64,000 nt of DNA from an uncultured Pseudomonadota bacterium (GTDB lineage: Bacteria > Pseudomonadota > Alphaproteobacteria > Rs-D84): contig CAMOGA010000005.1 in the NCBI GenBank assembly GCA_946613885.1, positions 3,159-67,158 on the forward strand. The letters are read 5' to 3'. The notes under the pieces were generated by a model, which was given only the letters and a program-made list of their open reading frames with translations, had not been told where the DNA came from and searched no databases. Below, in pieces: positions 21,065 to 62,145 of the stretch; the stretch's first letter is position 1; every line of letters begins with the position of its first letter. A program made the position numbers and the translations under genes.

Positions 21065-21484
21065 ATGATTAGAAATATTAGTGTGTTTACTTCTGACATT
21101 TATTGGCAACATATTTTTGTTGAACTGGGGGCGGTTATCGCCGATTCGCAAAAAGTGGCAGATGTTGTGTTTGATGATTTGGATATAAAAACACCTGTGG
21201 CGATTAGGGATTTGTATAAAATCATATTGGATGCGGCGAATAACACAGATATAATCACAGATGTTTTTGGAAAATATGTGATTTTGCCAACTTTGCAACA
21301 TAAAATAGTGGTTTTGTTATACAAAAATCCAAATATAACCATGCAAGAGTTAAAAAATTGCCTGGGGTTATTGCCAGATATAACAACACATACTGTGGAA
21401 AATGCAATTTATCAGTTGCGAAAAATTTATGGTCATGATTTTATTCAAAATATAAATGGGACATATAAAATTGGACACGTATAA
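21065..21484 (+). CDS. winged-helix DNA-binding protein resembling the N-terminal repressor domain of class II BirA
   Basis: The C-terminal 65 aa (LQHKIVVLLYKNPNITMQELKNCLGL...TTHTVENAIYQLRKIYGHDFIQNINGTYKIG) parallel E. coli BirA residues ~5-60. The ORF overlaps the birA start by 29 nt in another frame. Confidence 0.5.
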   Translation: MIRNISVFTSDIYWQHIFVELGAVIADSQKVADVVFDDLDIKTPVAIRDLYKIILDAANNTDIITDVFGKYVILPTLQHKIVVLLYKNPNITMQELKNCLGLLPDITTHTVENAIYQLRKIYGHDFIQNINGTYKIGHV

Positions 21485-22139: not shown

Positions 22140-22143
22140 TTGC

Positions 22144-22172
22144 TTGACTTTGATGTCAATTTGTGATATTAT
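22144..22172 (+). promoter_or_regulatory. strong sigma70-like promoter at the left edge of the phage-like module
   Basis: TTGACT, 17 nt spacer, TATTAT, with TGn extended -10 (TGATATTAT). Confidence 0.5.
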
Positions 22173-22199
22173 ATTAAACATCAAGAATAGAAATTATGT

Positions 22200-22223
22200 C
22201 CGCACGTTGTTGCGGTTTTTTTT
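22200..22223 (+). terminator. intrinsic terminator 1, ~25 nt after the promoter
   Basis: CCGCAcgttgtTGCGG followed by tttttttt. Confidence 0.6.
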
Positions 22224-22237
22224 ATTCTGAATTTTTT

Positions 22238-22266
22238 GTCTGTGCGTGTTTGCACGGACTTTTTTT
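22238..22266 (+). terminator. intrinsic terminator 2 (tandem)
   Basis: GTCTGTGCgtgtttGCACGGAC followed by ttttttt. Confidence 0.6.
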
Positions 22267-22285: not shown

Positions 22286-22696
22286 ATGCATTTAAATTTG
22301 ATAACAAATGATGATGATACGCAAATCACATCATATAAATTGGCACGCATAGTTTTTGCAGAAACTAATGCTGTGTCTTTGCGAGCTGTGGAATCGATGG
22401 CATCAATGATTTATAATATTCATATTAAATATGATAAATCGTTTGCAGATATTGCACATGATAAAAATCTGTTTGATGTATTAAATGAAAATTCATCAAG
22501 ACATAAATTATTAAATGTAAATGCAGATGATAAAAAATTACAAATGTGTTTGCGTGTCGTCAAAACTATGATGCGTGGTAATTTACCAGATGCTGTATTT
22601 GGTGCAATAAAATTTCATCATGCTGACATAATTCCATATTGGGCGATGGCACGTGGATATATAACTGAATGTGAAGATATTTTATATTATTTATAA
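22286..22696 (+). CDS. SleB/CwlJ-type cell wall hydrolase (phage endolysin-like)
   Basis: LARIVFAETNA......MASMIYNI and the C-terminal AIKFHHADIIPYWA follow the Hydrolase_2 (SleB-like) pattern. Confidence 0.65.
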   Translation: MHLNLITNDDDTQITSYKLARIVFAETNAVSLRAVESMASMIYNIHIKYDKSFADIAHDKNLFDVLNENSSRHKLLNVNADDKKLQMCLRVVKTMMRGNLPDAVFGAIKFHHADIIPYWAMARGYITECEDILYYL

Positions 22697-22708
22697 TGAG
22701 GATGAATC

Positions 22709-22900
22709 ATGAATAAATTTATACGTGGTGGATATTTGAAAAATCGTAAAACATATGTTGTATCAACAACAGGAATCGTTGGTGCAATGGGCGCGTATCT
22801 GATTGGTGATGCAGATATATTTACAACATTACAAACAATATTTATGTTGTCTGGAATTTATTTCTTGAAACAAGAATCTTCAACCAAAGGAAAAAAATAA
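22709..22900 (+). CDS. small two-TM membrane protein, holin-like by position
   Basis: 63 aa with two hydrophobic segments and a charged C-terminus, directly after the hydrolase gene. Confidence 0.35.
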   Translation: MNKFIRGGYLKNRKTYVVSTTGIVGAMGAYLIGDADIFTTLQTIFMLSGIYFLKQESSTKGKK

Positions 22901-23556
22901 TGGAATCTGTACCAGAAAAATTTTTAAATGCAGATGGTGAATTAAATACTTCTGCGTTGGTTAAATCATATTGCGAATTAGAAAAAAAGATGAGCAATAT
23001 GGTATCTGTACCAAATGAAGATAGTGATGATGTTGCAAAACAAAAATTTAATCATGCAATTGGGGTGCCTGATGATGCATCTGAATATCCAACAAATGAT
23101 TTGTTTGATGACGAATCGATTCGGAAAAAATTTCACGAGATTGGTTTAACATCAAAACAAGTTGAAAAAATTTATTCCATCGCAGAAGAATTTTTACAAC
23201 CAACATTACAAAATTTATTTCAATTACAATCACAAACAAATGCGATTAATGAATTAAAAAAATTTTTTGGTGATGATGATAAAATGAACGAAGCATTACG
23301 TGAAATAAATTCATTTGGTGAAAGATTTTTACCACACGATGCATTTGATGAGTTGTGCTCTACACCCCAGGGAATCCAAGGCATATATAAAATGATGCAA
23401 TCAATGGAACCAACAATTTTAACAAACAAAAATACAAATGAAAATTTAACTGATGATGCATTGCGAAACATGATGCGTGATCCAAAATATTGGCGTGATC
23501 ATGATCCTGAATATGTTAGAAAAATTGAAAATGGTTTTAAAAAATTATATTCATAA
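22900..23556 (+). CDS. phage capsid scaffolding protein candidate
   Basis: Acidic and helical. N-terminus VPEKFLNADGELNTSALVKSYCELEKK is the pattern seen at the start of podovirus scaffold/assembly proteins. Lies upstream of the capsid gene, as T7 gp9 does. Confidence 0.45.
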   Translation: MESVPEKFLNADGELNTSALVKSYCELEKKMSNMVSVPNEDSDDVAKQKFNHAIGVPDDASEYPTNDLFDDESIRKKFHEIGLTSKQVEKIYSIAEEFLQPTLQNLFQLQSQTNAINELKKFFGDDDKMNEALREINSFGERFLPHDAFDELCSTPQGIQGIYKMMQSMEPTILTNKNTNENLTDDALRNMMRDPKYWRDHDPEYVRKIENGFKKLYS

Positions 23557-23650: not shown

Positions 23651-23980
23651 ATGTTCTTTGGTTCCAAGAAAAAATGTGGTTGTGCAAAAGCTGCTGCAAA
23701 GCCAGCTGCTAAACCAGCTGCAAAAAAAGCACCTGCGAAAAAAGTAGCAGTTAAAAAACCAGCTGCAAAACCAGTTGCAAAAAAAGCACCTGCGAAAAAA
23801 GTAGCAGTTAAAAAAGTAGCTGCAAAACCAGTTGCAAAAAAAGCACCTGCGAAAAAAGTAGCTGCAAAAAAACCAGTTGCGAAAAAAGCACCTGCGAAAA
23901 AAGTAGCAGTTAAAAAACCAGCTGCGAAAAAACCAGTTGCAAAAAAAGCACCTGCGAAAAAAGTAGTTAAGAAAAAATAA
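23651..23980 (+). CDS. histone H1-like Lys/Ala/Pro tandem-repeat basic protein
   Basis: Good RBS (aaaaggagagaatt ATG). About 85% K/A/P/V in repeated [19 protein letters not shown] units. Flanked by its own hairpins/terminators. Confidence 0.7.
23690..23975. repeat. imperfect in-frame tandem DNA repeats (45-60 bp units) encoding the KA-rich protein
   Basis: The core gcaaaaaaagcacctgcgaaaaaagtagc recurs about five times at ~57, 57, 45 and 60 bp spacing. Confidence 0.8.
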
Positions 23981-24198: not shown

Positions 24199-25026
24199 AT
24201 GTCTATGTCTGTTGATCAAGTGTTTATCAAACAATTTGAAGCAGATGTTCATTTGGCTTATCAGCAAATGGGCACAAAATTACGCTCTACAATCCGCAGT
24301 AAATCAGGAGTTGTAGGATATTCAACAACCTTTCAAAAAATTGGCAAGGGTATCGCCAGTACTAAATCACGCCATGGTATTGTGCCGGTTATGAATTTGA
24401 ATCATACACCTGTGGAATGCACTTTACAGGATTATTATGCAGGCGATTGGGTCGATGCATTGGATGAATTGAAAACTAATGTTGATGAACGTCGTGTGGT
24501 GGCATCTGCCGGGGCATATGCGTTGGGTCGTAAAACAGATGAATTAATCATCAATGCTATGAACAGTGCAACACAATATGTTGGCGATTATTCCACAGGT
24601 TTAACCAAATCTTTGATTATGTCCGCACTGGAAATTTTGAATACTAACGATGTGCCAGATGATGGCCGCAGATTTGCAGTTGTTGGTGTTCATCAATGGA
24701 ACGAATTGTTAAAGATATCTGAATTTGTTTCCGCAGATTATGTTGGCAATGCAACACCATTGGTTGACGGTTGCGAATCCAGAAAATGGTTGGGTGTTAA
24801 TTGGATTTTATGTAATGCATTACCGTTGGCAAATACTGATGACCGCGATTGCTTTATTTATCATGCATCCAGTATTGGTCATGCATGTGGTCAAGAAGTT
24901 AAAACAGATATTACCTGGCATGGTGAACGTGCTGCACACTTTATTAGCAACAGTATGTCCCAAGGTGCAGTTTTGATTGATGGCGAAGGTATCGTTCGTA
25001 TTAAATGCGATGACGATGCAGAGTAA
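24199..25026 (+). CDS. major capsid protein, T7 gp10-like
   Basis: The N-terminal half parallels T7 gp10 (F.K.F...V..A.......R..IRS.S.....F...G......). Position between scaffold and tail tubular genes. At 275 aa it is short. Confidence 0.65.
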   Translation: MSMSVDQVFIKQFEADVHLAYQQMGTKLRSTIRSKSGVVGYSTTFQKIGKGIASTKSRHGIVPVMNLNHTPVECTLQDYYAGDWVDALDELKTNVDERRVVASAGAYALGRKTDELIINAMNSATQYVGDYSTGLTKSLIMSALEILNTNDVPDDGRRFAVVGVHQWNELLKISEFVSADYVGNATPLVDGCESRKWLGVNWILCNALPLANTDDRDCFIYHASSIGHACGQEVKTDITWHGERAAHFISNSMSQGAVLIDGEGIVRIKCDDDAE

Positions 25027-25049: not shown

Positions 25050-25280
25050 ATGGCTTTTCAAAATAAGAATTTGTCTGTGATTGCGTATGCAAATGGTTTT
25101 ACATTATGGCATTATAAAGAAAATGTGACATTGGCAACGATAATCGCATCTGGATATTTTAATTCTGTAAAAACATTGATGAATACAGGTGATATAATCT
25201 TAATCAATGGTTCAAACGGATCAACAATCAAGGTTGCATCAGTTGTTGATGGTGTTGTCAGTTTGGCGGCACTGTCATAA
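25050..25280 (+). CDS. small phage protein after the capsid gene (possible decoration or minor head protein)
   Basis: 76-aa ORF with an RBS, tightly spaced after the capsid gene. No motif recognised. Confidence 0.35.
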   Translation: MAFQNKNLSVIAYANGFTLWHYKENVTLATIIASGYFNSVKTLMNTGDIILINGSNGSTIKVASVVDGVVSLAALS

Positions 25281-25303: not shown

Positions 25304-25328
25304 CGGGTCGCTTTTTGCGACCCGTTTC
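25304..25328 (+). terminator. hairpin or weak terminator after the head genes
   Basis: CGGGTCGCtttttGCGACCCG followed by tttc. The U-tract is short. Confidence 0.4.
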
Positions 25329-25334
25329 TAATTA

Positions 25335-25865
25335 ATGGGTGTTAAAATGTTTACTAAAATAGATTTATGTTCAATGGCTTTGTTAAAATTGGGCGAAAAA
25401 CCAATTCAATCTTTGAACGAAGATTGTGTGGCTGCCAAATTAGCGCAAAGTTTATTTAATCCAGTAATTGATACATTGTTATCAATGTTTCCTTGGCATT
25501 TCGCAACACAATCAATTTTGTTGGTAAAAAATTCTGATGGTGATTTCGTTATTCCACAAAATGTGTTAAGGGTTTTAAAATGGTCTGGTAAAATAATTGG
25601 AAATAAAATCGAATCCAATTCAGATACATTGAATATAACAGCAATTGTTAAAACAGAACCAGAAAATTTTCCAGGATATTTTGCAAATCTGGTCGCAGAT
25701 AAATTAGCAATGGAATTTTGTATTCCGCTGACAGGTGATGCAAATGTTTTTCGAATGATGTCGGCAATATATGAATCAGAATATCAATCTGCAAAATTCA
25801 TAGATAGCGCATCTTCTAATCAATCAAATATAGATAATTTTTCTTTGATTAATGCCAGATTTTAA
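25335..25865 (+). CDS. tail tubular protein A, T7 gp11-like
   Basis: IDLCSMALLKLGEKPIQSLNEDCVAAKLAQSLFNPVIDTLLSMFPWHFA parallels T7 gp11 [45 protein letters not shown]. Size similar. Start at 25335 or 25347. Confidence 0.65.
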   Translation: MGVKMFTKIDLCSMALLKLGEKPIQSLNEDCVAAKLAQSLFNPVIDTLLSMFPWHFATQSILLVKNSDGDFVIPQNVLRVLKWSGKIIGNKIESNSDTLNITAIVKTEPENFPGYFANLVADKLAMEFCIPLTGDANVFRMMSAIYESEYQSAKFIDSASSNQSNIDNFSLINARF

Positions 25866-25882: not shown

Positions 25883-27595
25883 ATGGGAAATTTTTTAAAG
25901 ACACAAAATGTTTTTTCTGACGGTGAAATTGCACCAGAATTTTATTCAATAAATAATGTTCATGGTGTTGCATCTTTGGAAAACGTTGATGTTTTACAAT
26001 CTGGTGGATTGAAACGTCGGCGCGGATTAAAAAAAATAAAAAATACGGTTAATGGTGCAATATTAGTACCTTTTGTGATAAATGAATCTGAAAAATATTT
26101 GTTGGTAATATATGATACATCCATAGATGTTTATTGTAATGATACCAAAGTATCTTCGATAATATCGCCGTGGTTGGCATCTGATTTATCAAAATTACAA
26201 TATGCACAAAGGTTTAATTCGATATTTTTTGTTCATCCAAATTATATCCCAAAAATTTTAACAAAAACATCGTCTGGTTTTTCTTTAACAGATTTTGTGT
26301 TTTATATTAATTCTGATATTAGTGTGAATATGCCTTTTACACGATTCGATGATACAGATAATATTACAATCGGTATCAGCCCCAGTTCCATAGATAATAA
26401 CCATGCGATATTTACAGCCAGTGCAGATTTGTGGAATGACAATTGGGTTAATACCAGGTTATTAGCAAATAACAAACAGTGGGTTATTGAATCTGTGCAA
26501 GATGCACGTGTGGCAACCGTTTTTACTAACGGTGGTTATACGTTGCCTGATGGTGTGTTAAAAGAGTGGTACGAGGCCGCTTTTAATCCAAGACGTGGTT
26601 GGCCAATGTCTGTATCATTTCATCAAAATAGATTAATTTTTGGTGGAACTCCGTCTTTGCCAAATAATATTTGGATGTCTAAAATTGGCATGTATAATAA
26701 TTTTGATGTTGGAACAGGATTAGATGACGAGGCAATTTTTACCACACTGTTATCATCACAACATCATCAAATATGTACGATTGTCAGTTCTGATGCGTTG
26801 CAAATATTAACTTCGGTTGGTGAATGGGCGATATCTAATTCACCATTAACACCGTCAAATGTTAATATTAAACAGCATACATCTGTTGGCAGTTTTATTG
26901 ATAAATATTTGCCACCACAACAAATTGAGGGTGCAACTGTTTTTGTGTCTAAATCTGGACATGATATTCGTGAATTAGATTTGGATACTCTGAACGATAA
27001 ATATAATGCCACAGATTTATGTGTCTTTTCCAAACATTTGATAAACAAACCGGTCAGTTTAGCGTATAACAAATCATGCCACCAATTATTCGTTGTTACA
27101 GATGATGGGAATATGGCTGTGTTAAACAAATATATTAACACAGATATCGCCGCATGGGGAAAATATACAACAGATGGTTTGTTTAAATGTGTTGCAGTTG
27201 TTGATGATACAACTTATGTTATTGTAAAACGCGGGAATACATCGTATCTGGAAAAATTTGATGATGAGTGTTTGGATGATGCCGGACAATATGATTTTTC
27301 ATATAAAATATCTGGTTTTCCAATGATTATAAATGGACATGTTCCAAAAAAAATTCGCGTTCGTAAAATATCACTGCGTGTAATGAATACGAAAACTTTG
27401 TTTGTGAATAATCACCGTATGGAAATACCGAATTATGCATATGATGAAAATCATGATGGATACAGTGGTGATTTGTATATGAATTTATTCGGAACACAAT
27501 TTGACACTATGAAACCGCTGTGGACAATATCCAGCAATGAACAATTACCAGCAACTATATTATCTGTGACAATGGACGGATGGTATTTAATGTAA
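25883..27595 (+). CDS. tail tubular protein B, T7 gp12-like (shortened)
   Basis: The central segment PRRGWPMSVSFHQNRLIFGGTPSLPNNIWMSKIGMYNNFD....DDEAI parallels T7 gp12 NPWPSF....FFFRNRLGFLSGENIILSRTAKYFNFYP....DDDPI. Follows the gp11-like gene. Confidence 0.6.
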   Translation: MGNFLKTQNVFSDGEIAPEFYSINNVHGVASLENVDVLQSGGLKRRRGLKKIKNTVNGAILVPFVINESEKYLLVIYDTSIDVYCNDTKVSSIISPWLASDLSKLQYAQRFNSIFFVHPNYIPKILTKTSSGFSLTDFVFYINSDISVNMPFTRFDDTDNITIGISPSSIDNNHAIFTASADLWNDNWVNTRLLANNKQWVIESVQDARVATVFTNGGYTLPDGVLKEWYEAAFNPRRGWPMSVSFHQNRLIFGGTPSLPNNIWMSKIGMYNNFDVGTGLDDEAIFTTLLSSQHHQICTIVSSDALQILTSVGEWAISNSPLTPSNVNIKQHTSVGSFIDKYLPPQQIEGATVFVSKSGHDIRELDLDTLNDKYNATDLCVFSKHLINKPVSLAYNKSCHQLFVVTDDGNMAVLNKYINTDIAAWGKYTTDGLFKCVAVVDDTTYVIVKRGNTSYLEKFDDECLDDAGQYDFSYKISGFPMIINGHVPKKIRVRKISLRVMNTKTLFVNNHRMEIPNYAYDENHDGYSGDLYMNLFGTQFDTMKPLWTISSNEQLPATILSVTMDGWYLM

Positions 27596-27615: not shown

Positions 27616-27963
27616 ATGGGACAATTGGTATCAGATGTGACAAAAATATTAGATTATAATAATGCTAAGAAAGATGCAGAAAATCAGCGTCAGAAAATAT
27701 TAGCACAAATCGCATCAGATGAAAAAAACAAAGTAAATCTAATAAAAAAAGTGCTGTCAACGCAACGTGCCAAATACGGTGCAGATGGAAATTCTGGGGA
27801 CAGTTTTTCTGAAAATGCAGTTTTGAAAAGGTTGCGTAATGAAACTGCACAGCCGTATGATGATAAAAAGCAGGAGAATATAGAAAAAATAAGAAAAAAT
27901 AAAATAAAAAAACCAAATTTAATAAAAAATTGGTTGGCAAAACTAGATGATATAGCCGGTTAA
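27616..27963 (+). CDS. small charged protein, small terminase subunit candidate by position
   Basis: Strong RBS (aaaggagg). 115 aa, Lys-rich and coiled-coil-like, immediately upstream of the TerL ATPase ORF as T7 gp18 is. Confidence 0.3.
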   Translation: MGQLVSDVTKILDYNNAKKDAENQRQKILAQIASDEKNKVNLIKKVLSTQRAKYGADGNSGDSFSENAVLKRLRNETAQPYDDKKQENIEKIRKNKIKKPNLIKNWLAKLDDIAG

Positions 27964-27965
27964 AA

Positions 27966-28565
27966 ATGACAGTGGCTGATGCGTTGAATTTTTTGGATGT
28001 ATGGAATAAATTTATCGGATTACAAACGCCAATTCATCATCAAAAAATTATGCGATTTTTGGTTGATGTTTTTAATGAAAATCCCCATCGTGGGTTGTTA
28101 AATGCTTTTCGGCATTCTGGAAAATCTACGGTTGTGGGGATATTTGCCGCATGTGTTTTATACCATCATCCAAAAACCAGAATATTAATATTGTCTGCAG
28201 AATCTGGATTGGCATCCAGAATGGTTTCACATATCAAAAACATATTAGAAAACCATCCGTGGTGCGAAGGGATTTTGCCTGATGTGAAAAAAGAGTGGGG
28301 CAGTCACAAAATTACAATAAAACGCCCGGTTGGAATACGTGAACCTTCGGTTATATGTCAGGGTATCTCAGGAAATATTACCGGTATGCGTTCTGATTTA
28401 ATAATCTGTGATGATGTTGAGGTTCCAAATACATGCAATACTGTGCAAAAACGTATTAATTTGCGCGACAGATTGCGAGAACTGGATTTCATATTATCAC
28501 CAAATGGTGCGATGATTTATATTGGAACACCACACACACATGATACAATATACAAAACAGAATGA
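27966..28565 (+). CDS. terminase large subunit, N-terminal ATPase fragment
   Basis: Walker A FRHSGKST, Walker B DLIICDDVE, and coupling motif IGTPH. The ORF stops right after ...HDTIYKTE, where intact TerL proteins continue. Confidence 0.8.
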   Translation: MTVADALNFLDVWNKFIGLQTPIHHQKIMRFLVDVFNENPHRGLLNAFRHSGKSTVVGIFAACVLYHHPKTRILILSAESGLASRMVSHIKNILENHPWCEGILPDVKKEWGSHKITIKRPVGIREPSVICQGISGNITGMRSDLIICDDVEVPNTCNTVQKRINLRDRLRELDFILSPNGAMIYIGTPHTHDTIYKTE

Positions 28566-28566
28566 T

Positions 28567-29208
28567 TTAAGACAAAGATGATACAAATGTGCGTAATCTG
28601 TTTAACATCTTTTGACCGTTTTCACCAAACATTGGCAGATATGTTTCGTATTCTGGCATGTCTGCCTGGATTTTAGCACGATTGCGTTCTGTTAATGTTT
28701 CTGATAATAATTGTTGTGCAGAATCCCACAATTTGTATGCTGTATCTGTTTTTATGACGTTATCCCATTGTGCAGATAATTCAGAATCCGTCGCAATTGC
28801 AGATTTTATATCTGCGGCCCAATCGTTGCCAAATTTTTTAACTAATTGCATCTGTTTGATTGCATTTAAATTTTCAGATGTTGGTTGAAAACTGGATAAT
28901 GCACGTTTTAATTCGATAATTTCATTTTCTGACAAGGAAATATTTGTTTCGTGTCCCGTCATCATACCACCATAGGGCAACAAATCGTTGTCGATGGAAT
29001 CCATCGGGGTTGTGCCATTACGTAAATTGTTTATGTGTTTGATTAATTTTTTACCTGTGGGTAGATTTTCCAGTTCATGGATTACCTGTTCATCATTGGA
29101 TTCGGCAATAAAAACCTGATTTACAGCCGACCAACCACCGCGAATTACATGTTCTTGGCGATACAGGTTCAACAGGCGTTGTGCAACTACATGAGCCGAT
29201 TGCGACAT
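28567..29208 (-). CDS. hypothetical protein (last gene of the cassette inserted in terL)
   Basis: 213-aa ORF. Its stop lies 1 nt from the stop of the TerL-N ORF. No motif recognised. Confidence 0.5.
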   Translation of the reverse strand: MSQSAHVVAQRLLNLYRQEHVIRGGWSAVNQVFIAESNDEQVIHELENLPTGKKLIKHINNLRNGTTPMDSIDNDLLPYGGMMTGHETNISLSENEIIELKRALSSFQPTSENLNAIKQMQLVKKFGNDWAADIKSAIATDSELSAQWDNVIKTDTAYKLWDSAQQLLSETLTERNRAKIQADMPEYETYLPMFGENGQKMLNRLRTFVSSLS

Positions 29209-29235
29209 GGTTTCTCCCCCCTTGTAGTTAATCAG

Positions 29236-30243
29236 TTATTGCATGACAATCATAACGACTTTGTGCATGCTGGCACCAGATATTTTTTCATCTGGATTAG
29301 ATATATGACCGTATATTTTGCCATGCGAATCTTTTTTTACCAACACAATTTGTGCATCAGAGGTTTCGTCAGATGCCATTTTTGCAAAATCAGATGTTAT
29401 ACATACCGCCAAATCACCAGGTTTAGGTGTTAAACCACTGTCTGCGAAAACATATGCAGATTCTGGAATAAAACCGCCAACGCGTTTTGAATTTGGAACG
29501 ATGGCATAAATGCCACTGCGACCCTCCATCTCGGCAGGTGCAGCAATCATTGTTTCATCAGATTTTTTCAATTTAATACCCTTGGCATTTGGTGTACCAA
29601 ATACAGGAACCAATTTTTTGCGTGCGCTGTCATATAGTTGTGCGCCATATAAACCATCACTTACATTTAATCCGGACACAGGGTTCACAGGTTCCAATAC
29701 AGATTTTACGCGCGCAGTAACTTTGTTGATTTGTTTGGTTAATTCGCCAGAACTGTATAATTTGGCAATTTCATCAAACATTTGTGATGCGGTATACCCA
29801 AAAGCATTTGCCAACACATCAATTTCGTTTTCATAAACCTCACGCTGGCCAACCTCAATTTTATGATATACAGACAAGGTCATTTTTGCCGCCGCCGCTG
29901 CATCTGCGATGGTTTTTTCAGATTTTTGACGAATTTTACGTAATCCGGCACCAAATATCTTCAAACCGCCACCTTCGTTGTCGTTTAAACGGCGTTTGAT
30001 TTCTGTTTGCCACTTTTGTGCGCCAGCATCAGATTCATGGATAAATATATCGGATAACTTACAGCCCAAAATATTGCAAATATTCAAGATTTGTTTTTGA
30101 TTAAGACGACGTACACCTTTTTCAATCTTGGATACGGCAGATAAAGATAAATTCGAACGCCGCGCCAATTCGGTCATTTTCATACCTTTGGCAGTACGAA
30201 TATTGCGAATATTATTTGGAAATATAATTTCTTCTTGGGCCAT
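29236..30243 (-). CDS. double XRE-type HTH regulator with a cI/LexA-like C-terminal domain (catalytic motif not evident)
   Basis: Two HTH_XRE modules (NIRNIRTAKGMKMTELARRSNLSLSAVSKIEKG; LRKIRQKSEKTIADAAAAAKMTLSVYHKIEVG). The C-terminal beta-rich domain has the size of an S24 domain, but no G(D/S)SM Ser motif was seen. Confidence 0.7.
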   Translation of the reverse strand: MAQEEIIFPNNIRNIRTAKGMKMTELARRSNLSLSAVSKIEKGVRRLNQKQILNICNILGCKLSDIFIHESDAGAQKWQTEIKRRLNDNEGGGLKIFGAGLRKIRQKSEKTIADAAAAAKMTLSVYHKIEVGQREVYENEIDVLANAFGYTASQMFDEIAKLYSSGELTKQINKVTARVKSVLEPVNPVSGLNVSDGLYGAQLYDSARKKLVPVFGTPNAKGIKLKKSDETMIAAPAEMEGRSGIYAIVPNSKRVGGFIPESAYVFADSGLTPKPGDLAVCITSDFAKMASDETSDAQIVLVKKDSHGKIYGHISNPDEKISGASMHKVVMIVMQ

Positions 30244-30311
30244 AATTGAACTCCTTGGTATATATTGTTGACAAAATGATAGTCAATTTTTATGAATTTG
30301 GCAAGAAAAAT

Positions 30312-31862
30312 TTAAATGATATCTTCCGGAATTTCATTTATATCAACAATATTTTGGTTTTCGTCAGGTTGATTTTGTGTTTGTTGTTGATTAAATCCGT
30401 TGTCATAATCAGACGGTGTATCAAATTGATTTAAATTATCAAATAATGAATAATCGCCATTAAAGGACAAATGAACCGTTTCTGGTTTTCCATGACGGTT
30501 TTTAGCAATTATAACGTCTGCCTTGTTTTTCGCGTTGTTTAAGCGTTTGTGCCAATTTTGGATTACTGCATCAGATGCAGGACCAGATAACCTGTCTTCG
30601 GGCGAATGTCCGTTCAGATAGTATTCTTCACGGTATGTGAACATGACAATATCAGCATCTTGTTCAATAGATCCCGATTCACGTAAATCCGACAGAATTG
30701 GTCGCTTGTCATCACGATCTTCAACTTTACGTGATAACTGGGACAATACAACAACAGGAACATCCAATTCTTTGGCCAATATTTTTAGACCACGAGTGAT
30801 TTCAGATAATTCTTGAACACGATTGTCGTTGCGTTTGCCGCCAGGCGAAGACATCAATTGTAAATAATCGATAACAATTAATGCAATACCGCCAAATTGA
30901 CGTGCAATACGGCGCGCACGTGTTTTTATCGCAGGAACAGACACTTCGGATGTATCATCAATAACAATCGGAACCTTGGATAACGCATCAACATATTGGG
31001 ACATTTTCATAAAATCTTCGTCCGTTAGGTTGCTGCCTTCACGCATCATTGATGCCGGAATTTTAGATTGAGATGACAATATACGTGCCGCCAATTGTGG
31101 AAAAGACATTTCCAAACTGAAAAATGCGACCGCACCATGATATTGTTTGTTCGCACGTCCGTTTAATATTGCGTTTGCTGCATTAAATGCGATATTTAAT
31201 GCCAGTGTTGTTTTTCCCATCGCAGGACGACCAGCAATAATTATTAAATCAGAATGGTGCAGACCACTGATTGATTTATCCAAATCGTCCAACCCGGTTG
31301 TTAAACCAGATAATTTGCCATCAGCTTTATAAGCGGTTTCGGCCTCAGCCAGGGCGCTTTTTAATGCAGTTGCCAATGTGACAACATTGCGTTCTGTTTG
31401 ACCCGTCGATGCTAAATTAAATAATTTTTGTTCCGCAGATTCAATTTGTGTGTTAACCGGTTTGTCTAAATCTTCAACATAGGCATCATCAATAATAGAT
31501 TGTCCCAGATGTATTAAATCGCGTCTGCGTGCGTTGTCAAATACAATTTGCCCGTAATGCGCGACATTAACAACGGTTGAACCGGCAGATGCCAATTCTG
31601 ATAAATATTGTATGCCGCCAACAGATTCCAGTGTTCCCTGTTGTTCCAAGTATGTTTTTGCAGTAATAATATCAAACGGAACACCCACAGCAAATTGGCG
31701 CAGAGCCAATTTATAAATTTCTTGGTGTGCAGGATGTGAAAAGTGTTCTGGCAATAAAAATTCAGACACAGATTCCAACGCACGGTTATCCATCAACACC
31801 GCAGCCAGAACAGCTTGTTCTGCTTCTAAATTAACAGGTAAAGTTTTCGGGGTAAAGTCCAT
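30312..31862 (-). CDS. dnaB: replicative DNA helicase DnaB with a Q/N/D-rich C-terminal tail
   Basis: N-terminal P.NLEAEQAVLAAVL, Walker A GRPAMGKTT, IVIDYLQLM, SQLSR and RESGSIEQDAD. The start codon overlaps the start of the TerL-C ORF (CATG). Confidence 0.92.
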   Translation of the reverse strand: MDFTPKTLPVNLEAEQAVLAAVLMDNRALESVSEFLLPEHFSHPAHQEIYKLALRQFAVGVPFDIITAKTYLEQQGTLESVGGIQYLSELASAGSTVVNVAHYGQIVFDNARRRDLIHLGQSIIDDAYVEDLDKPVNTQIESAEQKLFNLASTGQTERNVVTLATALKSALAEAETAYKADGKLSGLTTGLDDLDKSISGLHHSDLIIIAGRPAMGKTTLALNIAFNAANAILNGRANKQYHGAVAFFSLEMSFPQLAARILSSQSKIPASMMREGSNLTDEDFMKMSQYVDALSKVPIVIDDTSEVSVPAIKTRARRIARQFGGIALIVIDYLQLMSSPGGKRNDNRVQELSEITRGLKILAKELDVPVVVLSQLSRKVEDRDDKRPILSDLRESGSIEQDADIVMFTYREEYYLNGHSPEDRLSGPASDAVIQNWHKRLNNAKNKADVIIAKNRHGKPETVHLSFNGDYSLFDNLNQFDTPSDYDNGFNQQQTQNQPDENQNIVDINEIPEDII

Positions 31863-32709
31863 GTCTATAAGGTTAAACGAAAATTTTGATAATTCAACAC
31901 CTTTTTTACGGGGGTATAAACAATTAAAAATTCCAATAATAGATATTGCCGGAAATTCAGCATGGCCAGAGGTGTTTCCATTAGAAAAAATTCATGAATT
32001 GGAAAATACAGTGGGAACACGACATTTTTCGGCTCAGATGATGTTAGAATATATGCCCGATGAACGCGTTCATTTAGATCCTGGGGCAATTAATTTTTAT
32101 TGTGATGATTTTAATCATCGTTTGGCGTGTATCGGTGTTCATGAAATTTCTGGTGTCAGTTTTTATTGGGATCCGTCATCTGGGCGTGCTAATTCTGATG
32201 GCAGTGTTTGTGTGTTAATTTATCGTGATGATAAAAACAGAAATGTTTTTGTTCATGATGTTTTATATATGCTGGTGGCAGATAACGATTTGTATCCATT
32301 ACGTAATCAATGTGAAACTGTTCTAGATTTTATGCAAAATAATTTTCTGAACAAAATAGCGGTTGAAATAAACGGAATTGGAAATGCTTTGCCAGAGATA
32401 ATTCGGACCAATGCATTAAAAAAACATATGCATGTAAATATAACACAAATTGCAAATCACACAAAAAAAGAAACCAGAATTTTAAATGCAATTGAACCTT
32501 TGTTAACCACAGGACATTTATACATGCATGAACGAATAAAACAAACAGTGTTGTTGTCTGAAATGTTGGCGTGGACACCGATGGGCAGCAAAGAACATGA
32601 TGATGGTTTGGATGCGCTGGCTGGGGCTGTGTCTGTGATGCCTGCACCAATCAGACCGATAAATTATAGCCAAAAATTAATTCAAGCAAATACAGAATTT
32701 CAAATATAA
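31861..32709 (+). CDS. terminase large subunit, C-terminal nuclease fragment
   Basis: WPEVFPLEKIHEL....FSAQMMLEYMP (end of the ATPase lid), then RNase H-like nuclease motifs FYWDPSSGRANSDGS and HDDGLDALAGAV. Immediately upstream of the portal gene. Confidence 0.75.
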   Translation: MSIRLNENFDNSTPFLRGYKQLKIPIIDIAGNSAWPEVFPLEKIHELENTVGTRHFSAQMMLEYMPDERVHLDPGAINFYCDDFNHRLACIGVHEISGVSFYWDPSSGRANSDGSVCVLIYRDDKNRNVFVHDVLYMLVADNDLYPLRNQCETVLDFMQNNFLNKIAVEINGIGNALPEIIRTNALKKHMHVNITQIANHTKKETRILNAIEPLLTTGHLYMHERIKQTVLLSEMLAWTPMGSKEHDDGLDALAGAVSVMPAPIRPINYSQKLIQANTEFQI

Positions 32710-32733
32710 ACAACCTAACCAAAAGGATAAAAT

Positions 32734-33975
32734 ATGGAAAAAAATCTTGTGCAATTATATAAACGTGCATTAAATGAACGTGAAATTTGGTTGCCCCGTT
32801 GGAAAAATGCTATGCGTTATACGGTGCCAACAAACGATACAGATGTTGCAACATTGTTTGATGCAACCGCATCAGATGCTGTTGATAATCTGGCGGCATC
32901 AATGTATTCTTTATTAACGCCACCTGAATCATTATGGATAAATTTGGTTCGTGAAAGTGATTTATCGCCAGACCCAGAAATTGCAACCAAAATGTTGCGG
33001 GCGCATTTAAATGATTCTAATTTTTATACAACTATACATCAGTGTTATATTGATTTAATTGTTTTGGGAACAGCGTGTTTGTTTATGGCTGAAAATCCAA
33101 TTGGGGCAAATTCAGCGTTTTCTTTTACGGCGATTCCAATGACAGATATTGCCATATTGCCGGGGGCGATATTTCATACTACGTCAATACCTGCATGCGA
33201 TTTGATGGAAAAATATCCAACGATAACTTTGCCAAACCATATGAAAGACACTGTAAAAAATAATCCAGAAACACCAATTAATCTGGTGCAATCATTAATT
33301 GGACAAGATTTTACTGCCTGGATTGATGTTGGCGGCGATTTTGAAAATAATGTTGTTGCGCGTGGAAAATTTGAAACAAATCCGTATATAATTTTTCGCT
33401 GGTCTTTGATTAGTGGTGAATTATATGGTCGTGGCCCAGTGTTGCGTGCGTTGCCAGATATAAAAACTGTTAACAAAGTTGTAGAATTGGTATTAAAAAA
33501 TGCAACAATCGCCGTCAGTGGTATCTGGCAGGCCGATGATGATGGGGTAATTAATTTATCAAATATAAATCTGACACCCGGCGCAATTATTCCCAAGGCA
33601 GTCGGCAGTTCAGGTCTGACCCCGTTGGCCAGCGGTGCAGATTTTGATGTGTCACAAATAGTTCTGCGCGATTTGCGTGACAGAATACGTCATACATTAT
33701 TGGCAGACAGGTTGGGTTTGTTGTCCGATAAAGAGATGACCGCTACAGAAATTTTAGCACGTAATTCGGATATGGTTCGTATCTTAGGTGCAACGTATGG
33801 TCGTTTGTTGCACGAATTTATTCGCCCGTTGTGTGAACGTGGATTGCAAATATTATCGCGTCGTGGATTAATTGATAAAATATCTTTGCACAGTGATGCA
33901 GAATTAGAATACATTGCGCCAATTGCACAAATGGCACGTGAAGAAATCTCAATCACAGGGGTTGATAATGAATAA
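32734..33975 (+). CDS. portal (head-to-tail connector) protein, T7 gp8-like
   Basis: LYKRALNEREIW...RYTVPT......A.DNLAASMYSLLTPPESLWINL parallels T7 gp8 VYERLKNDRAPY...QYTIPS......GLNNLASKLMLALFPMQTWMRL. YGRGPVLRALPDIK parallels YGRSYIEEYLGDLR. MTATEILAR parallels VTAEEIRYV. Confidence 0.8.
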   Translation: MEKNLVQLYKRALNEREIWLPRWKNAMRYTVPTNDTDVATLFDATASDAVDNLAASMYSLLTPPESLWINLVRESDLSPDPEIATKMLRAHLNDSNFYTTIHQCYIDLIVLGTACLFMAENPIGANSAFSFTAIPMTDIAILPGAIFHTTSIPACDLMEKYPTITLPNHMKDTVKNNPETPINLVQSLIGQDFTAWIDVGGDFENNVVARGKFETNPYIIFRWSLISGELYGRGPVLRALPDIKTVNKVVELVLKNATIAVSGIWQADDDGVINLSNINLTPGAIIPKAVGSSGLTPLASGADFDVSQIVLRDLRDRIRHTLLADRLGLLSDKEMTATEILARNSDMVRILGATYGRLLHEFIRPLCERGLQILSRRGLIDKISLHSDAELEYIAPIAQMAREEISITGVDNE

Positions 33976-34171
33976 TATTGAAAAACAATATGCGCAAACG
34001 TTTGTGACGGCATCGGGTAAACGGGTTTTATCCCATTTGCGAACAATTACTGTTGAACGCATTTTGGGACAAAATGCGACAAATGACGAATTAAGATGGT
34101 GGGCGGCACAGTGTGCATTGTTCCATCAAATTGAAAATTTAATAAATAGAGGAAATAATTCATCGCAGTAA
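33968..34171 (+). CDS. small conserved phage protein (Bbp19-like?)
   Basis: 67-aa ORF whose ATG overlaps the portal stop (ATGA). The pattern SGKRVLSHL.......ERILG....E......EG-like is recalled from small podovirus head-module proteins. Confidence 0.35.
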   Translation: MNNIEKQYAQTFVTASGKRVLSHLRTITVERILGQNATNDELRWWAAQCALFHQIENLINRGNNSSQ

Positions 34172-34226: not shown

Positions 34227-34487
34227 ATGAATAAAACACAAAATATTTTTAATATTGTGGACATTTTGCGCGATAGTTGGTTTTTAATCGCATTTATCGC
34301 AGGAATAATTTATTGGGCCGCACGTCAAGATTCTTCGTTGTCAGAAATTGAACGCCAAGACCAGCGAATAACAGCTTTGGAAAATCGAACGACAATCTTG
34401 GAATCTGGTATTGGACAATTGCAATTGAAAATTGACGGGATTAAAGAAGATGTGACGTTAATTAAAAGTGCGGTTATAAAAAACTAA
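34227..34487 (+). CDS. small TM plus coiled-coil protein (phage-associated, unknown role)
   Basis: One TM helix (WFLIAFIAGIIYWAA) followed by a heptad-like coiled coil. Last + strand gene of the module. Confidence 0.4.
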   Translation: MNKTQNIFNIVDILRDSWFLIAFIAGIIYWAARQDSSLSEIERQDQRITALENRTTILESGIGQLQLKIDGIKEDVTLIKSAVIKN

Positions 34488-34837
34488 ATCACGTTTTTTG
34501 CCCAATGTATTTTATGTCCGCAAACCATAATAACATCAAATCGTGCATCGCCGTGCCAATGTTTTTTTATTAAATAAGTTTCTGCGGCACGGCGCAGGCG
34601 CGCTGATTGACCTGGGGTTATTGCATCCCATGCGGATTGTATGGTTTTATGTGCTTTGACTTCTACAAAAACAATAGTGTTTTTATGTTTCGCAATTATA
34701 TCTATTTCTGCACGATTAGTATTTTTGCCGGTAATATATCTGTGCGCCAATATGCGGTATCCGTGCAGGCGCAAATACATGCGAACCAGAAATTCAGAAT
34801 AAATCCCAATCCAGTAAGATGTTTTATTAAAACGCAT
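34484..34837 (-). CDS. yraN: YraN-family (UPF0102) endonuclease-like protein
   Basis: G...E......L...GY.IL..R.......EIDIIA......VFVEVK pattern. Start set at MRFNKT. Confidence 0.75.
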   Translation of the reverse strand: MRFNKTSYWIGIYSEFLVRMYLRLHGYRILAHRYITGKNTNRAEIDIIAKHKNTIVFVEVKAHKTIQSAWDAITPGQSARLRRAAETYLIKKHWHGDARFDVIMVCGHKIHWAKNVI

Positions 34838-35606
34838 ATGGTTTTGCCTGGAAATTTTCACGAGATTTTTGGATGTTAATAGATGAATCTGTGGTGTTTA
34901 ATCCATTATCTGTTAAAACCAATTGACCATAATATGCACGCATCATTGGGTCATAGGCATTTTCAGATGAAATCCATTTGTCTTCACCAGAATTTGGTAT
35001 TCCGTATTTATCAATTACACCCTGCCAAAAAGCCAAAATCTTTTTTTCGCGGATGTTCGAAAATTTTTCATCACCACCATCCATTTGGTTAACATCATTT
35101 TTGTAAACGATTTTCCAAACAACATTGTCTGTGGCATTACTGGTCATGTAAATATCAATGGTTTCGCCGGTAAATGTACGTTCCAAATGTATTTCAGATA
35201 CATATAATAATCCACGATTTTTAGCCAACGAATATATGCATTTTTTTAATTGGTCTGGAATAAAAATATTGTTTTGACGACATTCGTAATCCAGATTGTA
35301 TTCCCATTCTTTGTTTATCGTGTAAACAATGCTGTCTTTTTGGCGCGGTGCATACAGTGATGAATTATTAAAAAACAGATTGTATACTTCATCATAATTC
35401 ATGCCCAACATTGCGCCGCCAATATCAAAATGTTTTACATCTAATACCCCCATGTCATCGTTTAAAGATACTGGTTCCATGTTCATATCATCATCTGTAT
35501 CATCAACAATAGCAAAATTGTCAAAATCTAAATTATCGTCAGCAATCGAAAAATTGCCCGAAAATATTATTGAACACACGGATATAAAAAATAATATTCT
35601 TTTCAT
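34827..35606 (-). CDS. secreted hypothetical protein
   Basis: Signal peptide MKRILFFISVCSIIFSGNFSIA and an acidic N-terminal region. Last gene of the bamA-downstream operon. Confidence 0.5.
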   Translation of the reverse strand: MKRILFFISVCSIIFSGNFSIADDNLDFDNFAIVDDTDDDMNMEPVSLNDDMGVLDVKHFDIGGAMLGMNYDEVYNLFFNNSSLYAPRQKDSIVYTINKEWEYNLDYECRQNNIFIPDQLKKCIYSLAKNRGLLYVSEIHLERTFTGETIDIYMTSNATDNVVWKIVYKNDVNQMDGGDEKFSNIREKKILAFWQGVIDKYGIPNSGEDKWISSENAYDPMMRAYYGQLVLTDNGLNTTDSSINIQKSRENFQAKPYAF

Positions 35607-35608
35607 TA

Positions 35609-36295
35609 TTATATGCCTTTGCTGCCTATGTTTGTGACCCTGAATCTGAACAAATTTACCGGATTTTGATTGCTTTTTAAATAATCCCTGATGTTTATTT
35701 TTTCACCATATTTATTGTGTTCACGTAATCCTGGTTCAAATAAAACCTCAATATGAATAATACCCTGGTCATATATTGGTTCTGTGTTCATATTATTTGA
35801 TTCTGGCCATGTGTATGTTTCATAATGAACAACATAATATACAGATTTTGTAGTATCAGATGTTTTGGTGTTAATATCATCAGGTGTGTGTAAAGGTGCG
35901 ATGCCACCGTCTGGAACACGTGCCATACGAAACATTTTTTTTGCAGACATATCGGTAATAAGTTTTGCCTCGCCGTTGGCCCATTCAGAAAACGCATTTG
36001 CCGAAGACATTTCAATCATTGTTGGACGTGATGTCACGTTCGCATCACCAGGCATAACCCGGAAATATTCAGATATATATTTTTTTATTAATTTATTACG
36101 TAAATCATCAGGAGATATTGTATCTATATCCTGTAATGCACCAACGCGTTGATTAACATTGTTGCCCATTTGAAATATATATGTTTTTATGTTTGAACGT
36201 TCATTTGCACGATATATTAACACACCAAATATCACCATGATAAAAACGATTATCAATAATAATATCCCCATAAAGAACGATTTTATTTTCATCAT
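35609..36295 (-). CDS. bitopic membrane protein, second VirB8-like paralogue (weak)
   Basis: N-terminal TM. LRNKLIKKYISEYFRV resembles the VirB8 helix-1 pattern, and C-terminal NPVNLFRFRVTNI resembles VirB8 NPLGFQVTSY. Overlaps the stop of the upstream paralogue. Confidence 0.35.
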   Translation of the reverse strand: MMKIKSFFMGILLLIIVFIMVIFGVLIYRANERSNIKTYIFQMGNNVNQRVGALQDIDTISPDDLRNKLIKKYISEYFRVMPGDANVTSRPTMIEMSSANAFSEWANGEAKLITDMSAKKMFRMARVPDGGIAPLHTPDDINTKTSDTTKSVYYVVHYETYTWPESNNMNTEPIYDQGIIHIEVLFEPGLREHNKYGEKINIRDYLKSNQNPVNLFRFRVTNIGSKGI

Positions 36296-36990
36296 TGTGT
36301 AATCCGGTATGAATTGAATTGTTTAACATAATATCCAAATGTTGCAGGATAAGAACCGTCTGTGTTTCGTGCAATATCCATGAATATCAATACATTAAAA
36401 ACACGTTTCATCATAGATGCATTTGATGTTTGTATTATGGCATAAACCTGCCAAGAACTGGCGTTTTCTGAAACTGTAATCGGTAAAATTTGCATTCCTA
36501 GAACACGCCATGTGTCGGTGTTTTCAATTTCTTTGTATTGTTGACTAACCATATGAAATTCTTTGAATACATCCGCACTACATTTACAAGATATCGCACA
36601 TTCTGTATTTGTGGGATCGTATTGTTCTGGTAAATCACATTCATCAACAGAACATTGTGACCAACGGGATTCATTGATGTTTGCATTATTAGAAATTGTA
36701 AACCAATCAGTCACAAAATCATTGACCAATTTTTCTTGGATGATTTGATGTTGCTGCATCGGTTTTTTGAATTCATCGGGATATGCAACCACAGACCATT
36801 CGTCTGTTATTGGATCCACAGATATTAAAAACGGATAATTTGTTTTAAAACGTATTCCCAGCACAATGAAACCACAAAATGCCACAATCATAAAAAATAT
36901 TATCGCAATCCAAATAGAAAAACTGCGGGACAGGGCAAGTGTTTTGCCCGCAGGAAATGTAGGTATATTAAATCCGTTTGGGTAATCCAA
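36292..36990 (-). CDS. VirB8-like type IV secretion protein
   Basis: Cytoplasmic N-terminus, then a TM helix, then FKTNYPFLISVDPITDEWSVVA (compare VirB8 LKT.VPYVITVD..TGE..V) and IIQEKLVNDFVTDWFTI (compare VirB8 ..V.KY.L..FV..RE.Y). About 230 aa. Confidence 0.5.
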   Translation of the reverse strand: MDYPNGFNIPTFPAGKTLALSRSFSIWIAIIFFMIVAFCGFIVLGIRFKTNYPFLISVDPITDEWSVVAYPDEFKKPMQQHQIIQEKLVNDFVTDWFTISNNANINESRWSQCSVDECDLPEQYDPTNTECAISCKCSADVFKEFHMVSQQYKEIENTDTWRVLGMQILPITVSENASSWQVYAIIQTSNASMMKRVFNVLIFMDIARNTDGSYPATFGYYVKQFNSYRITQ

Positions 36991-61741: not shown

Positions 61742-61773
61742 TTCCTTTTGTTATTTTTTATAAATTTTTCTAT

Positions 61774-62086: not shown

Positions 62087-62092
62087 GAATAT

Positions 62093-62121: not shown

Positions 62122-62145
62122 GTTTTTAAGTTATAATGACAATAA

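Follow-up and report, generated by a model that had tools for sequence, protein, structure and literature searches.

How can a viral DNA-packaging enzyme persist in a bacterial lineage when its gene is parted by a cellular operon that runs in the opposite direction? The question is raised by a 64,000-nucleotide stretch of DNA from an uncultured alphaproteobacterium of the order Rs-D84 (the whole stretch is hereafter called the window), where the large terminase (TerL) of a phage-derived gene cluster is specified by two plus-strand open reading frames (ORFs) that flank a minus-strand cassette of three genes. We find that the arrangement arose by an ancient and precise insertion, in which a host operon entered a permissive loop of the terminase gene, terL, in antisense orientation, and that it has left two independently translatable genes with intact active sites and no rejoining device.

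Two genes for one large terminase

The features on which the argument turns are these (aa, amino acids; nt, nucleotides):

27966-28565, plus strand: TerL-N, 199 aa, the first 199 residues of the large terminase
28567-29208, minus strand: 213-aa protein, last gene of the cassette, found in 80 of 80 GTDB loci
29236-30243, minus strand: regulator with two helix-turn-helix (HTH) domains, 335 aa, matching Pfam HTH_3, HTH_31 and HTH_26
30268-30286, no strand assigned: perfect palindrome TTGAC-N9-GTCAA in the intergenic spacer that separates dnaB from the regulator gene, overlapping a minus-strand -35-like TTGACT
30312-31862, minus strand: dnaB, 516 aa, a replicative DNA helicase that scores as host type
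31849-31853, plus strand: Shine-Dalgarno-like GGGGT within dnaB codons Thr4-Pro5, 7 nt ahead of the ATG of TerL-C
31861-32709, plus strand: TerL-C, 282 aa, which completes the ATPase domain (final strand and lid helices) and contains the RNase H-like nuclease domain
31870-31897, minus strand: predicted dnaB promoter (-35 TTGAAT, 16 nt, -10 TAACCT) within TerL-C codons 4-13

A preliminary description of the window had recognized the two terminase ORFs, and both their coordinates and their motifs were confirmed by the ORF list and by profile searches. TerL-N carries FRHSGKST (Walker A with its preceding arginine), LIICDDVE (Walker B with the catalytic glutamate) and IGTPH (motif III), while TerL-C opens with a 12-aa leader peptide, continues with the segment that completes the ATPase, and bears the motifs WPEVF, SAQMML, WDP, E.NG.G and HDDGLDA. 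The two halves also proved to be colinear and abutting, as had been claimed. In PHROG 38, the TerL family, TerL-N occupies profile positions 276-459 and TerL-C positions 466-707 (E 5e-37 for TerL-C). Against the NCBIfam model termin_lrg_T7 (NF033889), TerL-N scores 220 bits over positions 4-190 (cutoff 150); the best TerL-C stretch covers positions 332-500, and TerL-C alone reaches 99 bits, which is under a cutoff set for the whole protein. TerL-C further matches Pfam Terminase-T7_RNaseH-like, TerL-N matches the T7-like TerL chains 8dgc_E and 4bij_A, and the halves match N-only and C-only PHROGs "terminase" families (phrog_4758 and phrog_5573). Joined end to end, the two make a 481-aa protein that is colinear with intact TerLs of 462-501 aa drawn from a library of 1.84 billion representatives, with an overlap of zero and a loss of zero, and the join falls in a loop that varies in length among the intact proteins.

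The junctions with the cassette are as tight as had been reported, and the three genes between the halves are those that had been named: a hypothetical protein, a two-HTH regulator and DnaB. At the left junction 1 nt separates the TGA of TerL-N from the TAA of the minus-strand gene, and at the right junction the ATG codons of dnaB and TerL-C overlap as CATG. In all relatives the ATPase and nuclease parts are likewise found on two ORFs 3.3 kb apart, and not on one polypeptide.

The preliminary description had further taken the gene to be split cleanly between ATPase and nuclease, and in this it was wrong. An AlphaFold model of the fused protein, built with 60 TerL homologues from the library (a single-sequence run gave a predicted local distance difference test score, pLDDT, of 33), reached a pLDDT of 92.5 and a predicted template modelling score of 0.77. 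Its only low-confidence block comprises residues 201-210, with the junction at 199/200, and forms a coil that links the strand of motif III (177-187) to the strand after it (219-223); helices at 240-258 follow, and the RNase H-like domain starts at about residue 280-300. The best Foldseek match of the model is the T7-like TerL of phage PhiV-1 (8dgc_E, E 4e-27), followed by T4 gp17, HK97 TerL and Sf6 TerL, and structures of isolated ATPase domains align to it over about 270-300 columns. The position of the break in the model, together with these ATPase-domain alignments, indicates that the split lies within the ATPase domain; as modelled, it falls in a disordered loop past motif III and not at the ATPase/nuclease boundary. 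Across the 60 TerLs the motif columns are invariant or nearly so.

Conservation, selection and overlapping signals

To compare relatives we scanned GTDB, one genome per species, with a DnaB alignment as the query. A total of 254 genomes matched, and the best 80 of these, all in-group and at least 81% identical to the query, were analysed. The order TerL-N, then hypothetical gene, regulator gene and dnaB on the opposite strand, then TerL-C, was found in 78 of the 78 genomes that had both flanks on the contig. The preliminary description had proposed looking for relatives with and without the cassette: it was present in every one examined, and a version without it was not encountered. An order of about 20 genes is common to seven distinct loci from metagenomes and metagenome-assembled genomes (MAGs), and in one subclade the host genes on the portal-side flank differ while the split-terminase unit is the same. 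The GTDB loci are 68-77% identical to the window in DnaB, 58-77% in TerL-N and 50-65% in TerL-C, and the 120 best TerL-N homologues are each 198-212 aa long, at 82-100% identity.

Both TerL halves are under strong purifying selection. The ratio of nonsynonymous to synonymous substitution (dN/dS), whose comparison across relatives had also been proposed, was summarized as medians over sequence pairs with dS 0.1-1 (13 pairs for TerL-N and 31 for TerL-C). These medians were 0.032 for dnaB, 0.036 for TerL-N, 0.038 for the regulator, 0.046 for the portal protein, 0.064 for the third cassette gene, 0.066 for the capsid protein and 0.088 for TerL-C, with 0.04-0.32 across all 13 genes tested. Nei-Gojobori comparisons to the window gave 0.04-0.09 for TerL-N, 0.11-0.25 for TerL-C and 0.05-0.10 for DnaB and BamA, which puts the constraint on dnaB on a par with that on BamA; in the same comparison dS was similar between host genes and phage-derived genes. 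All 83 N halves carry the signatures of Walker A with its arginine, Walker B and motif III, and all 84 C halves carry the three acidic motifs of the nuclease. Pairwise distances of the element's genes correlate with those of birA or dnaB at a Spearman rho of 0.5-0.8. Since birA and dnaB correlate with each other at 0.74, the element appears to have been inherited vertically.

Three of the 80 species (L098, L112 and L153) have lost the integrity of the cluster through multi-gene deletions, stop codons and frameshifts. The stops and frameshifts hit scaffold, TerL-N, TerL-C or portal genes, and the deletions also took capsid and tail genes, such that capsid residue 191 now lies beside TerL-N residue 81 in one case and tube A residue 45 beside TerL-N residue 60 in another. 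In these same species dnaB, the regulator gene and the third cassette gene are intact. This joint decay indicates that the TerL halves follow the fate of the particle genes and not that of the cassette. Single stops were also seen in the regulator gene of L106 and the portal gene of L159; MAG sequences may hold errors, and these stops could be sequencing errors.

What, then, is the cassette? By its profile scores its dnaB encodes a host-type cellular replicative helicase: the protein scores 595.5 bits against NF006606 (cutoff 540) and 500 against TIGR00665 (cutoff 385), both cellular equivalogs, and fails the phage_DnaB model with 411 against a cutoff of 499. It is very probably the only replicative helicase of its genome, to judge from the small size of these genomes, below 1 Mb (PMC12306168), and from a dN/dS equal to that of other housekeeping genes. 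The regulator consists of two XRE-type HTH domains and a C-terminal 150 aa. It had been called cI-like, which holds for the HTH domains; for the C-terminal 150 aa we found no match in Pfam, the PDB or by BLASTP, the PDB matches being confined to the HTH part, and the protein had no S24 match in Pfam and no BLASTP similarity to lambda cI. The 213-aa protein gave no match in Pfam, PHROGs, NCBIfam or the PDB. The half-sites of the palindrome next to the regulator gene do not vary across 87 sequences, and the palindrome is likely an autoregulatory operator of the regulator. It occurs as a perfect site only once in the window, where near matches are not above chance, and for that reason we claim no regulon. 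A related sequence with shorter spacing, TTGAC-N6-GTCAA at 22143-22160, is specific to the window and overlaps the -35 element of the promoter of the phage-derived cluster.

At the right junction the start of TerL-C and the start of dnaB share the same nucleotides. The CATG overlap is present in 73 of 73 genomes, as is GGGGT or GGAGT 8-12 bases 5' of the TerL-C ATG. This element lies in dnaB codons, and the Thr4 codon there is ACC in 56 genomes and ACT in 17, with no other used, although these two make up 39% of the Thr codons elsewhere in dnaB; the adjacent Pro codon uses all four third bases. The ORF from the TerL-C ATG runs for 281-289 codons in 70 of 71 complete cases, and the window offers TerL-C no other in-frame start upstream of the strand at 219-223.

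The first codons of TerL-C are themselves constrained beyond their amino acids. Normalised synonymous entropy is 0.08-0.17 over TerL-C codons 1-20, against a TerL-C mean of 0.75, and a comparable dip was sought in the other genes of the locus and not found. Read on the minus strand, this start block is a conserved A-tract, TTGAA(A/T), 16 nt and TA..(A/C)T, a pattern from which we predict that the dnaB promoter lies within the first codons of TerL-C. The predicted promoter ends 7 nt ahead of the dnaB ATG, a placement from which the dnaB mRNA of the window's subclade is predicted to be leaderless or nearly so. In one other arrangement, seen in a single subclade, an 18-nt insertion adds an AAGGA ribosome-binding site with the TerL-C frame maintained. 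The inserted fragment probably carried the dnaB promoter along with it, in which case the roughly 12 N-terminal residues of TerL-C, which fall in a disordered part of the model, would be that promoter translated. Synonymous-site conservation revealed no conserved plus-strand promoter for TerL-C and portal within the cassette.

The surrounding phage-derived cluster

The divided terminase belongs to a phage-derived cluster of about 12 kb (approximately 22.1-34.5 kb of the window) that is chromosomally fixed and vertically inherited, and whose phage genes total about 9 kb. Its remaining features, all on the plus strand, are as follows:

22144-22172, plus strand: sigma-70-like promoter that follows birA and marks the left boundary of the cluster (TTGACT-17-TATTAT, TG-extended)
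22200-22259, plus strand: two terminator-like sites (hairpin and T-run) between the promoter and the first cluster gene, with conserved stems and T-runs
22286-22696, plus strand: endolysin-like cell-wall hydrolase, 136 aa (PHROG 938, E 3.6e-7; weak Pfam Hydrolase_2 matches on orthologues)
22709-22900, plus strand: candidate holin, a 63-aa membrane protein whose function is suggested by its hydrophobic segments and a position conserved in relatives
22900-23556, plus strand: scaffolding protein, T7 gp9-like (Pfam PF05396 on orthologues, including the 100%-identical copy of L008; PHROG 3742)
23651-23980, plus strand: basic protein with Lys/Ala/Pro repeats, 109 aa, between the scaffold and capsid genes, no family match
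24199-25026, plus strand: major capsid protein (Pfam PF19821, E 1e-72; PHROG 3437)
25050-25280, plus strand: conserved 76-aa phage protein (PHROG 18004); 54 of 80 phage relatives have it 3' of their capsid gene
25304-25324, plus strand: strong, G+C-rich terminator-like hairpin with a T-run after the 76-aa gene, conserved in relatives
25335-25865, plus strand: tail tubular protein A (adaptor, gp11-like; Pfam Tube; PHROG 394)
25883-27595, plus strand: tail tubular protein B (nozzle, gp12-like; PHROG 376, E 8e-87)
27616-27963, plus strand: conserved 115-aa protein just 5' of TerL-N, a 115-aa gene in all relatives (dN/dS 0.22)
32734-33975, plus strand: portal protein (Pfam Head-tail_con, E 5e-78)
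33971-34171, plus strand: Bbp19-like small phage protein (Pfam PF25181, E 3.6e-4, below the cutoff; orthologues also match)
34227-34487, plus strand: 86-aa product of the last cluster gene, with a membrane segment at its N terminus and a coiled coil (weak PHROG 736)

The cluster adjoins birA in all loci. Scans for sigma-70 promoters and terminators covered 20.5-35 kb, where promoter-like sites were no commoner than in shuffled sequence, so single hits were used only when conservation backed them. This was the case for the leftmost promoter, whose hexamers are more than 90% conserved in an intergenic alignment of 72 species. With the two terminator-like sites behind it, the region 22144-22259 looks like a leader that requires antitermination or a small RNA; it had no Rfam match. 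The hairpin at 25304-25324 lies just past the capsid gene and its 76-aa neighbour, and the site just past the capsid gene is the classic place for a partial terminator that raises capsid over tail mRNA. The family searches gave no match for the 63-aa candidate holin or the 115-aa protein. The 86-aa protein is conserved in 75 of 80 GTDB loci, and its features suggest a candidate lysis or spanin-like protein. As for the 109-aa basic protein, its gene is preceded by a strong ribosome-binding site, and relatives carry an ORF of varying length at the equivalent place; the protein resembles histone H1 or AlgP, and it could be a DNA-condensing or internal capsid protein.

The host side of the window is that of a bacterial chromosome. 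It holds tRNAs and a two-piece alphaproteobacterial transfer-messenger RNA (tmRNA), has a G+C content of about 37%, and its TerL-N and DnaB homologues are named "Candidatus Enterousia" or "MAG: Alphaproteobacteria bacterium"; the RNAs and the names together assign it to a chromosome of the Candidatus Enterousia type. Enterousia belongs to the uncultured order Rs-D84 of the gut, with genomes under 1 Mb that have normal coding density and no accumulation of pseudogenes, and the study describing them makes no mention of phage genes (PMC12306168). That 9 kb of phage genes are kept in such a genome argues for a function. Within 10 kb on each side of the cluster, Pfam tables for seven contexts showed no integrase, excision or replication module, and the 64-kb window has no other phage-like genes outside the cluster.

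Three observations concern the neighbourhood alone. The tmRNA is permuted (61772-62125, minus strand) and has the predicted tag AANDNVRFAMAA. A 139-aa ORF at 21065-21484 on the plus strand, with a weak HTH match, overlaps birA (21456-22139, plus strand), is a separate gene in relatives too, and may be a detached BirA repressor domain. Beside yraN, at 34827-36990 on the minus strand, lie three co-directional genes without an assigned family, one with a weak match to VirB8 (E 0.006); the three evolve quickly, with 36-63% identity between relatives, and may specify envelope or secretion components.

The viral relatives bear on the origin of the cluster. Eighty uncultivated relatives from IMG/VR (L011-L090) have an intact TerL, with about 42-52% identity to TerL-N and 49-63% to the capsid protein, and in none of them does TerL have DnaB, the regulator or the 213-aa protein as a neighbour. 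Their gene order is portal, scaffold, capsid, tube A, tube B, 3-5 kb of fibre and internal genes, TerL and endolysin, so that endolysin homologues adjoin TerL. Relative to this order, the Enterousia cluster has lost the 3-5 kb fibre and internal block, and its portal and endolysin modules have exchanged positions. The IMG/VR sequences are mostly "viral" contigs of 10-25 kb, many of them cut from isolate genomes, and represent an extensive, uncharacterised family of podovirus-like elements of the T7 supergroup, to which no cultured representative is close. Among GenBank phages, a megablast search with 24-36 kb of the window gave no match, and tblastn with the fused TerL returned only intact T7-like TerLs, at no more than 27.5% identity and with no split example. 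The T7-type TerLs of cultured phages (T7 gp19; PhiV-1, 8dgc) share family, fold and catalytic motifs with the Enterousia halves; they differ in being one polypeptide, at about 22-27% identity to the two-chain form.

Competing explanations and significance

We propose that the cluster descends from a T7-supergroup podovirus, of which it would keep the endolysin, candidate holin, scaffold, capsid, portal, both tail-tube proteins and the large terminase. The lack of an integrase, polymerase or ejection proteins points to an element like a gene transfer agent (GTA) rather than to a prophage. Before the lineage radiated, a 3.3-kb host segment (dnaB with its promoter, the regulator gene and the third gene) would have inserted antisense into terL, at the codons for a disordered surface loop just past ATPase motif III. 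From then on the terminase would have been made as two proteins, TerL-N ending in a short, variable acidic tail and TerL-C beginning at the ATG of the CATG overlap by way of the Shine-Dalgarno sequence in dnaB codons 4-5. The C chain would supply the last beta-strand of the ATPase as well as the lid and the nuclease domain, and because it would complete the ATPase fold, an active motor would have to form by non-covalent reassembly of the two chains. We consider it probable that the chains do reassemble into a working terminase, one that serves a GTA-like particle released by the lysis genes of the cluster. The preliminary description had offered a terminase working as two polypeptides as one of two possibilities, and the low dN/dS, the motifs, the conserved Shine-Dalgarno sequence and ATG, the lack of a fused form and the joint decay of the halves lend it support of an indirect kind.

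Several points weigh against this proposal. A split inside the ATPase domain requires fragment complementation, for which we know of no demonstrated precedent in any terminase. TerL-C evolves 2-3 times faster than TerL-N, and most species pairs are near or past dS saturation, so that the dN/dS values come from a modest number of pairs. A small terminase was not identified in the cluster or the 64-kb window, nor were ejection (gp14-16-like) proteins or a receptor-binding fibre found there; such genes may be located at other places in the genome, as those of RcGTA are. What is present in 54 of 80 GTDB loci is a 182-aa fibre stub, the N-terminal tail-docking domain only of a T7-type tail fibre, where phage fibre families measure 470-1450 aa. 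In many species the stub overlaps the start of TerL-N (examples at 9484-10032 of L003 and 9511-10059 of L001), and it is absent from the window's own subclade, with none between 27963 and 27966.

These gaps would fit a cluster that has been repurposed, as a capsid-like compartment, a secretion or lysis device, or a separate ATPase and nuclease, with DNA packaging lost. In the cluster no ejection proteins, complete tail fibre or recognisable small terminase were found, even the fibre stub is gone from part of the clade, TerL-C is less constrained than TerL-N, and the break disrupts the ATPase fold. We nevertheless judge such repurposing unlikely. The catalytic motifs of both the ATPase and the nuclease are invariant, and if the fragments had taken on new and unconnected roles, there would be little reason for just the residues used in ATP-driven translocation and DNA cutting to be retained; the portal protein, the docking partner of the terminase, is among the most constrained genes; and the halves always co-occur and decay jointly with the capsid, tail and portal genes.

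Could terL instead be rejoined when needed, by excision of the 3.3-kb cassette or through an intron or split intein, to give a single-chain TerL? Precedents exist for several-kb elements that split a gene as in Enterousia, namely the Bacillus subtilis sigK skin element and the Anabaena nifD and fdxN elements. These encode a recombinase, are bounded by repeats and are excised to restore a gene needed in a terminally differentiating cell, and a cell near lysis could similarly afford the loss of dnaB. Phage terL genes can also be interrupted by homing endonucleases and, among actinophages, by inteins. The known split terminase genes are likewise rejoined: UL15 of herpes simplex virus 1, varicella-zoster virus, duck enteritis virus and their homologues has exons parted, family-wide, by the opposite-strand genes UL16 and UL17 (PMC3079670), and terL of Jug phage is split by group I introns whose removal is documented by RNA reads (PMC12880540). 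The preliminary description had known of no terminase interrupted in this way. That needs qualifying, since UL15 and intron-bearing terL are interrupted; both are rejoined at the RNA level, however, of which the Enterousia gene shows no sign. The UL15 exons are spliced into one polypeptide, whereas the Enterousia halves have their own stop and start, no splicing signal and a host helicase operon between them. The UL15 break probably also lies at a different position from the Enterousia break. In intron- and intein-split phage terL the colinear fragments are annotated as separate ORFs, like the Enterousia halves; their inserts are same-strand and self-splicing, whereas the Enterousia insert is antisense and contains an essential cellular gene.

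The preliminary description had seen no recombinase, intron or intein hallmarks or flanking repeats, and our Rfam, repeat and domain searches agree. On both strands of 27900-32800, Rfam returned no match to an intron or any other RNA family at the gathering threshold or at E values up to 1. There are no direct or inverted repeats at the cassette junctions, and Pfam, PHROGs and NCBIfam revealed no recombinase domain in or near the cassette, the contexts of relatives included. Thus none of the features of a skin-type element (recombinase, repeats, rejoined gene) was found at the Enterousia terminase. Beyond IYRT/IYKT the N half closes with 1-15 variable, mostly acidic residues, its extra residues at the break numbering 2-19, and the extra residues of the C half number about 12-18 and are also variable; extensions this short and not conserved argue against a split intein. 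The TerL-N stop codon is conserved, as are the Shine-Dalgarno sequence and ATG of TerL-C, and the 18-nt indel in the leader is in frame. Finally, no fused form was found among 5.8 billion protein clusters, where the longest in-clade proteins were 212 aa (N type) and 283 aa (C type). An artificial query across the junction, against which a fused protein should score double, brought back nothing but halves that each span 46-54% of its length, and in a library clustered at 50% identity no representative more than 52% identical to TerL-N exceeds 210 aa. On this evidence rejoining is highly improbable.

The preliminary description had also considered a very recent insertion, and one might equally imagine a decaying prophage remnant too young to have gathered stops. 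The extremely tight junctions and the decay in 3 of 80 species could be read in this way. The 78 of 78 GTDB genomes and seven metagenome loci refute a recent origin, however: the split is common to lineages whose DnaB is only 68% identical (up to 32% different) and whose synonymous sites are saturated, and dN/dS of 0.04-0.09 with invariant motifs does not fit a remnant, so that we regard this explanation as scarcely credible. The chance that the junctions are an artefact of assembly, with unrelated contigs joined, is negligible and in effect refuted, as the same junctions are present in more than 90 independent assemblies from various studies, hosts and assemblers.

If the two-chain terminase does serve a GTA-like particle, how would it compare with known GTAs? 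Like RcGTA and CcGTA of Alphaproteobacteria, BaGTA and FpGTA, the Enterousia cluster is a small, one-locus set of phage-origin head, tail and lysis genes that is vertically inherited under purifying selection and has no integrase or replication module. It differs from them in its T7-supergroup podovirus ancestry, as opposed to HK97-type siphovirus ancestry, in that no small terminase, ejection proteins or full fibre were found in the cluster or the window, and in having its terminase in two genes with dnaB between. To our knowledge the terminases of known GTAs are all one-piece, and in every tailed phage and herpesvirus studied the motor formed by the large terminase has a single chain. The first podovirus-like GTA, FpGTA of Faecalibacterium, was reported only in 2026 (PMC12946183). 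Our literature searches turned up no described phage element in Enterousia or Rs-D84, no T7-like GTA and no terminase that is naturally encoded by two genes around a cellular operon. What is new here is a domesticated phage cluster with a split enzyme gene; both kinds of thing were already known separately.

Might the embedding itself have a function? As there is no conserved cassette promoter for TerL-C and portal, both may be reached by antisense read-through, and plus-strand transcription to them would then cross 3.3 kb antisense to the cassette, passing over the dnaB promoter. Transcription of the particle genes could thereby silence the regulator gene and dnaB by interference, a possibility that we put forward only tentatively and think doubtful. 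If true, the silencing of a repressor-like regulator and of the helicase would lock a sacrificial producer cell into particle production, and together with a two-chain terminase it would amount to a design, both regulatory and enzymatic, that is new among domesticated viruses.

The locus describes a domesticated T7-like virus cluster, previously undescribed, in an uncultured, genome-reduced gut lineage where, with a genome below 1 Mb, each retained gene is informative, and it is a strong candidate for a new type of GTA in animal and human guts. Its terminase, split within the ATPase as modelled, persists under strong selection in no fewer than 78 species-level lineages among those examined. 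A two-chain motor would show that fragment complementation is tolerated in this enzyme and would mark a permissive site for its engineering, and the nesting of a host operon in a viral gene provides a compact and testable set of overlapping constraints, with a possible coupling of replication to particle production.

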